From NCBI GenBank assembly GCA_964508305.1, contig CAZDSX010000002.1, forward strand, positions 5,905 through 69,904: a DNA stretch of 64,000 nucleotides, in the 5' to 3' direction. The notes below the pieces were generated by a model, which worked only from the letters and a program-made list of their open reading frames with translations, ran no database searches and had not been told where the DNA came from. The translations under genes were made by a program, and so were the position numbers. Source of the stretch: an uncultured Bacteriovorax sp. (GTDB lineage Bacteria > Bdellovibrionota > UBA1018). Shown here piece by piece: positions 60,668 to 63,314 of the stretch; the stretch's first letter is position 1, and each line of letters opens with the position of its first letter.

Positions 60668-61997
60668 GAACCACCTTCACGTCCTGTTCACCGACGCCCG
60701 CTGCCTGCATGAGTCCGGCCTTGAGCGGGCCAGCAGTTCCCAGCACGGAGATGCTGAGCTTGTCCGGTTTGAGGAACGCAGCAAGGGCGGTGTTCACGTC
60801 TTCGCGCGAGACTTTTTCGAGACGTGAGGCAAAGCCTTCAAAAAATCCCTTTTCCAGCCCCAGGGTCCGCTCGAGGATCCTGTTCTCGATGCGCTTCTTG
60901 GGCGTATCGGACATGAATGCGGCGCTGTTGATCGAGCTCCTCTTGGCAAGGTCGAATTCAGCCTGTGTGATCCCGCTCTTCCGGAGATCGGCGATCATCC
61001 CAAGCGCGTAGGCAAGGGCCTCAGGCGTGTCCTTCGTGGCGGGAAAAAGATGGACCTGCCAGGAGCGCGGCTGGACTCCGAAGCGGAAGGCGCTGGATGC
61101 ACCATACGACCAGCCGCGTTTGACGCGGATTTCCTGCATGAGTCTCGACATGAAGGAGCCGCCACCGAAGGCCGTGTTGCCCAGATAAAGGGCGGGATAG
61201 GACGGCTCGGACATCAGTGTACCGATCTGGCCAATTTGGATCTGGGTCTGCGTCCGATCCGGCTTGTCGACGATCTGGAGCCTGCGCGCGCCGGCGTCGG
61301 AGGGAGCAGCGAGCTTCGGCAGTTCGCCACGACCCGGCATGGCACGTGCCACGCGCCCGGCCCAGGCCGGGAATGCGGCATCCTCGACATCTCCTGCCGC
61401 AAGGAAGAATGTCCGATCAGCGTTCATGATGGCCAGGTGGTGCCTGCTCAGGCTGGCACGGTCGAAGGCCTGCACATGGGAGGGAAGGCCCGCCGCAGGC
61501 CGACCATAGGGATGTCCGTTGAAGAGCATCCTCGAGAACTTCTTGGTGCTGACCGCATGGTCGCTGGAGAGTTCCTGCATCAGGCCGGAGATGGTCTCCG
61601 CCTTGAGTTTTCGGATCTCGTTCTCGCTGAAGCTGGGATGGAGCAGGACGTCCTCGATCAGCCCGAGGAGATCCGGAAGGCGATTGCTGAGGGCTGCACC
61701 GCGGACGATCATGTACTCGGCCCGGTTCTCGACCACGAGTTGGGCTCCCCACTGGTCGAGCTTGAGGTCGATCTGTTCCTTGGTCAGGCTCCGGGTCCCT
61801 CGTAGGAGCATCTGGGACATGAACTGTGTGAGTCCAAGCCGATTCTCCGGATCGGCGACAGACCCTCCGCGAATCACGATATTCACGTAGCCAATGGGCA
61901 GGCGTGAGTCCTTCTCGACTTCAACTTCAAGGTTTGCCGCCTGTGCAGTGGCTCCGAACAGCAGTGCGTGGACCAGGAGAAGCTTGATGGATTTCAT
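60651..61997 (-). CDS. M16-family peptidase homologue, non-catalytic subunit type (zinc-binding motif replaced: GLTQFMSQMLLRGT)
   Basis: Signal peptide and Peptidase_M16/M16_C folds, but no HxxEH. The family is recognisable from the region aligned to ..GxAHFLEHMxFKGT.. Confidence 0.75.
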   Translation of the reverse strand: MKSIKLLLVHALLFGATAQAANLEVEVEKDSRLPIGYVNIVIRGGSVADPENRLGLTQFMSQMLLRGTRSLTKEQIDLKLDQWGAQLVVENRAEYMIVRGAALSNRLPDLLGLIEDVLLHPSFSENEIRKLKAETISGLMQELSSDHAVSTKKFSRMLFNGHPYGRPAAGLPSHVQAFDRASLSRHHLAIMNADRTFFLAAGDVEDAAFPAWAGRVARAMPGRGELPKLAAPSDAGARRLQIVDKPDRTQTQIQIGQIGTLMSEPSYPALYLGNTAFGGGSFMSRLMQEIRVKRGWSYGASSAFRFGVQPRSWQVHLFPATKDTPEALAYALGMIADLRKSGITQAEFDLAKRSSINSAAFMSDTPKKRIENRILERTLGLEKGFFEGFASRLEKVSREDVNTALAAFLKPDKLSISVLGTAGPLKAGLMQAAGVGEQDVKVVPYSEE

Positions 61998-63314
61998 GAA
62001 GACTCCTTCTTGCGGATACCGACGACGGTATTCCTTCTATTCTCAGTGAAGTACTTGCGAACGACGGAGCGAATCTCGTCGGCACTGACCTTTTGGAGCC
62101 GCTCGAAATAGGCCGGCCCCTTTTCGATCCCGCCCGCCTGCGACTCGTAATGACCGGCGAACCTGGCCCGTTCGGAATTGGTGTCGAGCCCCTCGTAGAA
62201 CTCAAAGTTCAGGATATTGCGTGCGCGCTCGAGCTCCTGCGCCGGCACGAGCTCCCTTGAAAGCCGCTCAAGCTCCCTGAGGATGATCCTTTCGGCCGAG
62301 TTTGCCCGTGCTTCCTTTTGGAGGCCTGCGGCCAGGAAAAAAAGCGAAGGGTCCTTCGAACTCGACGAGTAGGCGTATGCCTCTGTCGCCACACCAGCCT
62401 CAACGAGGGCTTTTTGGAGCCTGCTGCTCCGTCCGCCGGAAAGGATGGTCTGGAGGACATCCAGTGCAGGAAGATCCTCATGGTCCATTGCGGGAATCGG
62501 GTAGGCCATCAGGAGCTTCTCGACCTGGATGTTCAATCGAAGGGTCTTGCGCCGGGCGGAGAGCTGTTCGGGTTCCTGTGCCGGGCGAGCCCGAGTGGCG
62601 GGATCCTGTCCTGCTGCAAGCGCCGGATAGCTTCCATAGTACTCTCGGATCAGCGATGCGACCCGGGACGCCTGGACGTTGCCTGCCACCACGATGACTG
62701 CATTGGCGGGAGAATAATGGCTGTCGTAGAACCTGCGCGCATCAGCGGCCGACATCCGTGCCAGGTCCTCTTCATAGCCGATCACCGGCCAGCGATAGGA
62801 GTGCTTCTCGTAGGCAAGGGCGTGGAGTTCCTGCTGCATCAAACCGTCGGGGCTGTTCTCGTTCCTGAATCGGCGCTCGTTCTGGACGACCTCTCGCTCA
62901 GTGGAGAAGGACTGGTCATCGATCACGAGGTCCCTCATCCGGTCCGCTTCGAGGCGGACGATCAATTCCAATCGTTCCCTGGGCAGCTCCTGGATATAGG
63001 TCGTGTGGTCATGGGTCGTGTAGGCATTCTCTCCTTCGACTCCGGCCTCCTCAAGGATCCGGCTCCTCATCCCTGGATCCGACGCCGTACCAGGTCTGGT
63101 AGGAAAAGGTTGGCGAGGTTTCGTCCTCGATCACGAGGAGTCGAAGACCGTTCTCGAAGCGGAATCGATGCGCCTCAATCCCCCGAGTGATGGCGATCCT
63201 TTCGCTTTTGGAGGAGAGGTCGCTTCCCAGCCTGAGCGATGAGCAGGAAGCGAGTGCAGAAACAGCCAAAATTCCGACAGTGGCGCGCGAGATGACACAT
63301 TGAGCAGTTTTCAT
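61994..63314 (-). pseudogene. M16-family (pitrilysin-like) zinc peptidase gene disrupted by a frameshift. The N-terminal 87-aa ORF (63051..63314) and the body (61994..63070) are in different frames, and the HxxEH zinc-binding segment is missing.
   Basis: The N-terminal ORF ends ..FENGLRLLVIEDETSPTFSYQTWYGVGSRDEEPDP*. The body resumes at ..RSRILEEAGVEGENAYTTHDHTTY.., which corresponds to the region about 20 aa after HxxEH in intact M16B enzymes. Confidence 0.6.

Follow-up and report, generated by a model that had tools for sequence, protein, structure and literature searches.

The window, that is the whole 64-kb stretch of DNA that was analysed, carries near its end a two-gene operon of M16 peptidases inside a division and cell-wall cluster. 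The genes murG, murC and murB are on the forward strand, the M16 operon is on the reverse strand, and ftsQ, which begins 48 nt from the M16 start, is on the forward strand again (Table 1). This agrees with the earlier note on the same DNA, which had placed the pair between murB and ftsQ. The upstream gene of the operon encodes the catalytic subunit and is split into two ORFs; the downstream gene encodes the non-catalytic partner. The stop codon of the former overlaps the start codon of the latter (ATGA, 61994-61997), and the partner gene directly adjoins the catalytic gene in nearly all of the ~80 related loci among the matches listed.

Table 1. Features of the M16 operon and its surroundings (positions in the window)
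Feature	Position	Strand	Basis
murB, convergent with the M16 operon	59646..60647	+	Pfam FAD_binding_4, MurB_C
Non-catalytic partner gene, 448 aa, Sec-type signal peptide ...AQA/AN	60651..61997	-	Pfam, motifs, 3amj_B match
Disrupted gene of the M16B zinc peptidase catalytic (active, beta-like) subunit	61994..63314	-	ORFs, frames, Pfam, intact allele, structure matches
Body ORF, 358 aa	61994..63070	-	remaining M16 N-domain including Glu173, full M16_C
N-terminal fragment ORF, 87 aa	63051..63314	-	lipoprotein signal peptide (lipobox LASC, Cys24), first M16-domain strands
Deletion junction, single remaining CGG of the 3-nt microhomology	63059..63061	-	comparison with intact allele L002
Divergent intergenic region between M16 operon and ftsQ, 48 nt	63315..63362	.	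alignment, near-invariant between sister species
ftsQ, 5' part, extending past the window end	63363..64000 (>63998)	+	Pfam POTRA_1, FtsQ_DivIB_C

The two ORFs of the catalytic gene lie in different frames, as had been read before, and overlap by 20 nt. The 87-aa ORF (MKTAQ...LASC...WYGVGSRDEEPDP*, where LASC is the lipobox) passes through FSYQTWYGVGSRDEE and then through two out-of-frame codons (PDP*) to a TGA stop. Its Cys24 is invariant across 19 orthologues, and the fragment alone has no Pfam match. The body ORF begins with MRSRILEEAGVEGENAYTTHDHTTY. It covers only profile positions 57-144 of 149 of Peptidase_M16 (PF00675), has a complete Peptidase_M16_C domain (PF05193, 1.6e-37) and retains the third zinc ligand, Glu173 in the numbering of the intact protein. 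Since the body ORF has neither a signal peptide nor a usable Shine-Dalgarno sequence, its product is probably not made or not exported. The HxxEH motif, which the earlier note reported as lost from this gene, is encoded in no frame at the junction. A G..H..EH..F.G motif is absent from the whole window, and no second M16 gene with HxxEH was found within these 64 kb, the visible part of the genome. No NCBIfam match gave an equivalog-level name, every one being far under the cut-off.

The partner has both M16 domains (PF00675, 9.6e-15; PF05193, 2.5e-18) and, as described previously, carries GLTQFMSQMLLRGT at the position of the zinc motif. HxxEH is absent from the partners of all 10-11 relatives, which conserve G[LV][TS]xFMxxMLLRGT instead. 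In M16B heterodimers the HXXEH motif occurs in one chain only (2025 review, PMC12731061), and an R/Y pair from the other half completes the active site (PMC12731061). The partners of all relatives conserve EIRVKRGWSYGA at the position of the R/Y pair, and RVKRGWSYG is conserved; the catalytic chain has VEAGVATEAYAY there, with no Arg. From the position of the motif and the description in PMC12731061 we infer that EIRVKRGWSYGA is the R/Y pair. The conservation in all relatives, the match to the 'inactive subunit' 3amj_B and the one-chain rule indicate that the lack of HxxEH in the partner is, as far as these comparisons reach, the ancestral state of a non-catalytic subunit, and that it belongs to the expected design rather than being a further defect. 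The proposal that the partner had been damaged is thus not supported, and the statement that neither subunit can bind zinc as written holds for the window in the sense that both chains lack the site, of which the partner's lack is normal.

The 80-nt deletion and the intact allele

An intact allele of the catalytic gene is present on contig L002, the 1674-nt Logan assembly of run DRR333367, which comes from a sample independent of the window. It encodes a 466-aa lipoprotein (P0123), with which the window ORFs P0001 and P0121 share one 90% protein cluster. Two stretches of the contig align to the window, one of 384 nt with a single mismatch and one of 1213 nt with 4, which makes 99.7% nucleotide identity (5 mismatches over 1597 nt aligned), and a gap of 80 nt lies between them. 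Apart from the gap, the sole difference within the gene is one synonymous change (ATC/ATT). An unrelated 40-aa JGI sequence, P0122 (VRENKDLKDALALL...), is grouped in the 90% cluster of the M16 fragment, which looks like an oddity of database clustering, not biology.

Alignment to related M16 genes, suggested in the earlier note as a check, gave with this allele the exact extent of the gap. The lesion is one deletion of 80 nt (26 codons plus 2 nt), out of frame, corresponding to positions 385-464 of L002. The intact reading is GAG GAG C/CG GGA CGG … GCA TTT GAT /CGG ATC CTT, with slashes at the ends of the missing segment, so that the 80 nt lie between two CGG triplets; the window reads GAGGAGC-CGG-ATCCTT. 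Residues 86-111 (GRTGLAHLFEHMMFKGTRKVPDGAFD) and 2 nt are lost, and with them His92, Glu95 and His96 of HLFEH. A loss including the zinc motif had been expected at about 63051-63075, and a piece is indeed missing there. Its size, put at about 15 residues, has to be revised to 26 residues plus 2 nt, and its exact site is the single CGG of Table 1.

The sequence TGLAHLFEH is unchanged across 19 orthologues, the most distant of which have 49% identity. The spacing from His to Glu in pitrilysin is the same as in insulysin (IDE). In the intact allele Glu173 lies 77 residues past His96, as in insulysin (PMC12731061). HxxEH with a Glu some 76-77 residues downstream in exactly one chain is thus found when the intact allele is read (H92-L-F-E-H96, E173) and not in the window's own sequence, from which the motif is deleted. 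The gene family is, by its motifs, that of M16B heterodimers, and the copy in the window is a predicted null allele of it.

Three further searches were negative within their scope. An exact look-up of the 358-aa product of the window on contigs gave no match, a DNA scan of metagenomes with the 28 nt that precede the junction on its 5' side had 0 matches, and a protein-guided metagenome scan (JGI) gave a closest relative of at most 53% identity and no further alleles.

Origin of the deletion

The nearest other species is represented by contig L001 (Logan ERR14822413), which has 87% protein identity and the same gene order. Its catalytic gene is also broken, in the stretch 1394-1700, where a G is missing from the GGG of AGG-GAT (SRDE) near 1652-1654; HLFEH is still encoded, but out of frame. 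This lesion sits 10-13 nt 5' of the breakpoint in the window. Two contigs of two other runs, L166 and L167, match L001 with 99.90-99.97% identity over 5.1-5.8 kb, with that G as the sole gap, and encode an intact 470-aa protein, so that the 1-nt deletion of L001 is a singleton. The chance of two independent singleton lesions within ~13 nt in a 1.4-kb gene is roughly 2% by a post hoc estimate. Such a coincidence is unlikely, and the clustering hints that something local is at work, be it a mutational hotspot or a site of sequencing problems. The coding strand at the lesion sites is G-rich.

The reading that is preferred here, with a probability of about 0.88, is that of an ordinary M16B operon with one isolated recent 80-nt deletion, be it a variant or an artefact. 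The locus would encode a heterodimeric zinc peptidase of the Sph2681/Sph2682 type in two genes with overlapping stop and start codons. The catalytic lipoprotein subunit would contribute HLFEH...E173, and the secreted non-catalytic subunit, which lacks HxxEH, would supply the R/Y pair. The intact pair is predicted to form a heterodimer and to cleave peptides in a zinc-dependent manner. The catalytic gene would have been hit by a single, very recent, out-of-frame deletion between CGG triplets, which would remove both His ligands together with the catalytic Glu and split the gene in two. Also predicted are a periplasmic location, a clam-shell heterodimer and, for the deletion allele, an inactive peptidase whose partner subunit is lost through a polar effect. 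Should the deletion be real, the catalytic gene would yield an 87-aa lipoprotein stub, the partner would no longer be translationally coupled because translation would stop prematurely 1 kb upstream, and the allele would be null for the whole peptidase.

That the sampled strain or population carries the deletion as a loss-of-function variant is given slightly better than even odds. The other possibility, that it is purely an artefact, is rated somewhat below even; it could be a chimeric or jumping-polymerase product, the outcome of template switching during amplification at the CGG microhomology, or an error of assembly or polishing. The deletion allele is seen in one assembly only, the sole other contig of the species is intact, and the singleton indel of L001 10-13 nt away would fit a stretch that is hard to sequence because of its context. 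However, the breakpoints share only 3 nt, too short to mislead a de Bruijn assembler, the imperfect 8-13-nt repeats nearby are out of register with them, and an 80-nt loss is not a type of base-calling error. Moreover, no indels occur elsewhere in either assembly. The assembly of the window is otherwise clean, with no internal stops in 10 of the 10 neighbouring genes compared and full-length Pfam matches for many other genes.

Routes to the deletion by way of a hairpin or of direct repeats were considered and rejected. The intact region, folded as DNA, has no structure (z = 0.66), so that a hairpin-mediated deletion is not supported and an artefact caused by a stable hairpin over the deleted segment is disfavoured as well. 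Deletion between the longest direct repeats, two copies of TCGGATCC 100 nt apart, or between TGAGGAGCCGG and TGAGGAGGCCGG, 96 nt apart, does not fit, the true breakpoints being out of register with either pair and sharing only CGG.

Conservation of the locus

The placement of the pair had been called odd, ddl being the gene expected there. The arrangement of divergent ftsQ, M16 pair and convergent murB is, however, also found in L001, in relatives at 57-66% identity, and in L007 (52%) and L013 (45%). More distant Bdellovibrionota (L008, L010-L012) keep the divergent ftsQ/M16 adjacency, followed by unrelated genes. In total, the adjacency occurs in 11 of the 11 listed loci with a catalytic subunit of 45% identity or more (L001, L003-L013), which are Oligoflexia, Bacteriovoracaceae and Bdellovibrionales MAGs. 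It is absent in the ~70 loci of other phyla among the matches listed (L014-L085), one of which, L079, has an ftsQ-like match ~4 kb beyond the M16 pair. Being conserved across relatives, the placement is, on this sampling, a stable lineage trait of Oligoflexia/Bdellovibrionota and not a local accident. No ddl is present at the murB-ftsQ position throughout the group, nor among the ~30 ORFs scanned elsewhere in the window, a scan that was not exhaustive. Literature searches found nothing on a pairing of ftsQ and M16 in Bdellovibrio or on the two run accessions.

The intergenic region that separates ftsQ from the M16 operon (L001 1352-1393), together with ~35 nt of either flanking gene, is near-invariant against L001 and L166, while the flanking dS is ~1-2. 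This near-invariance suggests a shared, constrained control region. A simple scan for sigma-70 promoters over 60400-63800 gave 0 sites.

A more far-reaching reading would see the M16B pair as an accessory of the division locus that is conserved in the Oligoflexia/Bdellovibrionota lineage, lies divergent from ftsQAZ in every case and has the 48-nt control region in common with it. Its catalytic subunit would be knocked out recurrently at a G-rich hotspot on the immediate 5' side of the zinc motif. If true, this reading would tie a periplasmic peptidase functionally to cell division or to remodelling of the envelope, with natural variation between on and off states. The conserved adjacency and the two neighbouring lesions are its basis, and it is regarded as quite improbable.

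Still less credence is given to decay, in which the M16 pair would be in the course of being lost from the lineage and both genes would be pseudogenes or nearly so. As written, HxxEH is missing from both subunits, and the nearest relative, L001, likewise has a broken catalytic-subunit gene. But near-identical intact counterparts exist for both broken contigs, L002 for the window and L166/L167 for L001, each broken contig has one lesion, and the two lesions differ; the deletion is therefore not common to related genomes. The motif loss of the partner, in turn, is ancestral and conserved. The rest of the catalytic gene shows no further stops or indels against L002. Nei-Gojobori dN/dS against L001 is 0.043 for the body, 0.214 for the signal-peptide region and 0.090 for the partner, and 0.019-0.090 for murB, murC, murD, murG, ftsW, mraY, the single Mur ligase and ftsQ; dS is near saturation, which makes these ratios rough. 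The value for the body is as low as those of murC, murG and ftsW, and by this measure the catalytic gene is plainly as constrained as its essential neighbours. An intact 99.7% identical copy from another sample indicates a one-off recent mutation or an assembly error rather than decay, and the species is, to judge from these comparisons, keeping the gene intact under strong purifying selection. The earlier note had left the choice between decay and a sequencing or assembly error. The first is contradicted by the intact HLFEH of L002, the lack of any other lesion and the low dN/dS of the body, whereas the error stays as one of two live options, beside a real variant.

Recoding by programmed frameshifting, or a functional split into separate proteins such as a non-catalytic M16 complex, can be set aside: the two ORFs do overlap, the body ORF has an ATG, and non-proteolytic M16 proteins exist, e.g. 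the bc1 core proteins (PMC12731061), but no frameshift can restore 80 missing nt that encode an invariant motif within 26 invariant or conserved residues, no X XXY YYZ slippery heptamer occurs in 63051-63075, the body would lack a signal peptide, and a one-piece intact gene exists in the same species.

Under the preferred reading, that of an ordinary operon with one recent deletion, the catalytic gene should be annotated as a disrupted (frameshifted and partly deleted) version of an otherwise normal M16B catalytic-subunit gene, and its partner as a normal non-catalytic subunit; terms such as degenerating or zinc-free should not be applied to the pair. The significance beyond annotation hygiene is small. 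Of wider interest are an M16B operon that lies stably beside ftsQ across a branch of Bdellovibrionota, where it has no known function, and the occurrence of two independent lesions within ~13 nt.

Other genes of the cluster and of the window were also noted. The genes murE and murF are usually in tandem between a PBP gene and mraY. In the window there is a single Mur ligase gene (51991-53532, 513 aa), flanked by the PBP gene (49908-51968) and mraY (53576-54652), and L001 (10113-12805) likewise has one Mur ligase between PBP and mraY. Intact hutH and hutU with full-length profile matches (34721-37962), mreB (44019-45095, reverse strand) and a second PBP with a transpeptidase domain (46935-48236), directly upstream of the dcw cluster, are also present.

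Comparison with M16B heterodimers of known structure

The closest characterised system is Sph2681/Sph2682 of Sphingomonas sp. A1 (3AMI/3AMJ). In both cases two adjacent genes encode chains of ~45-50 kDa, each with Peptidase_M16 and Peptidase_M16_C domains, and HxxEH...E is present in one subunit and missing in the other; the genes described here are co-oriented, with overlapping stop and start. The intact catalytic chain matches 3amj_C, the 'zinc peptidase active subunit' (4.5e-63), and the partner has its best match among solved structures in 3amj_B, the 'zinc peptidase inactive subunit' (6.6e-33), both matches spanning nearly the full length of the respective subunits. An R/Y pair, which in the partner is predicted in the C-terminal domain, and the lack of dependence on a glycine-rich loop of the MPP type are further common features. 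In contrast to the Sphingomonas pair, the catalytic subunit here is a predicted lipoprotein (lipobox LASC), the operon is divergent from the adjoining ftsQ inside a division and cell-wall cluster, and the catalytic gene is, in this assembly, broken by the 80-nt deletion.

The best match of the catalytic subunit overall is 4nnz_A (4e-69), a Pseudomonas-type 'probable zinc protease', and the second-best match of the partner is 3gwb_A (2e-27), an 'M16 inactive domain protein'. Both 4NNZ and 3GWB are structural-genomics entries with no known function. MPP alpha/beta and Thermus TTHA1264/TTHA1265 are likewise clam-shell M16B proteins with one catalytic and one non-catalytic chain (PMC12731061), and MPP-beta chains match the catalytic subunit at 1e-16 to 1e-26. 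MPP-alpha, however, has a glycine-rich loop instead of the R/Y pair (PMC12731061), whereas the partner described here would keep the R/Y pair, and the cellular compartment and the substrates differ from those of MPP.
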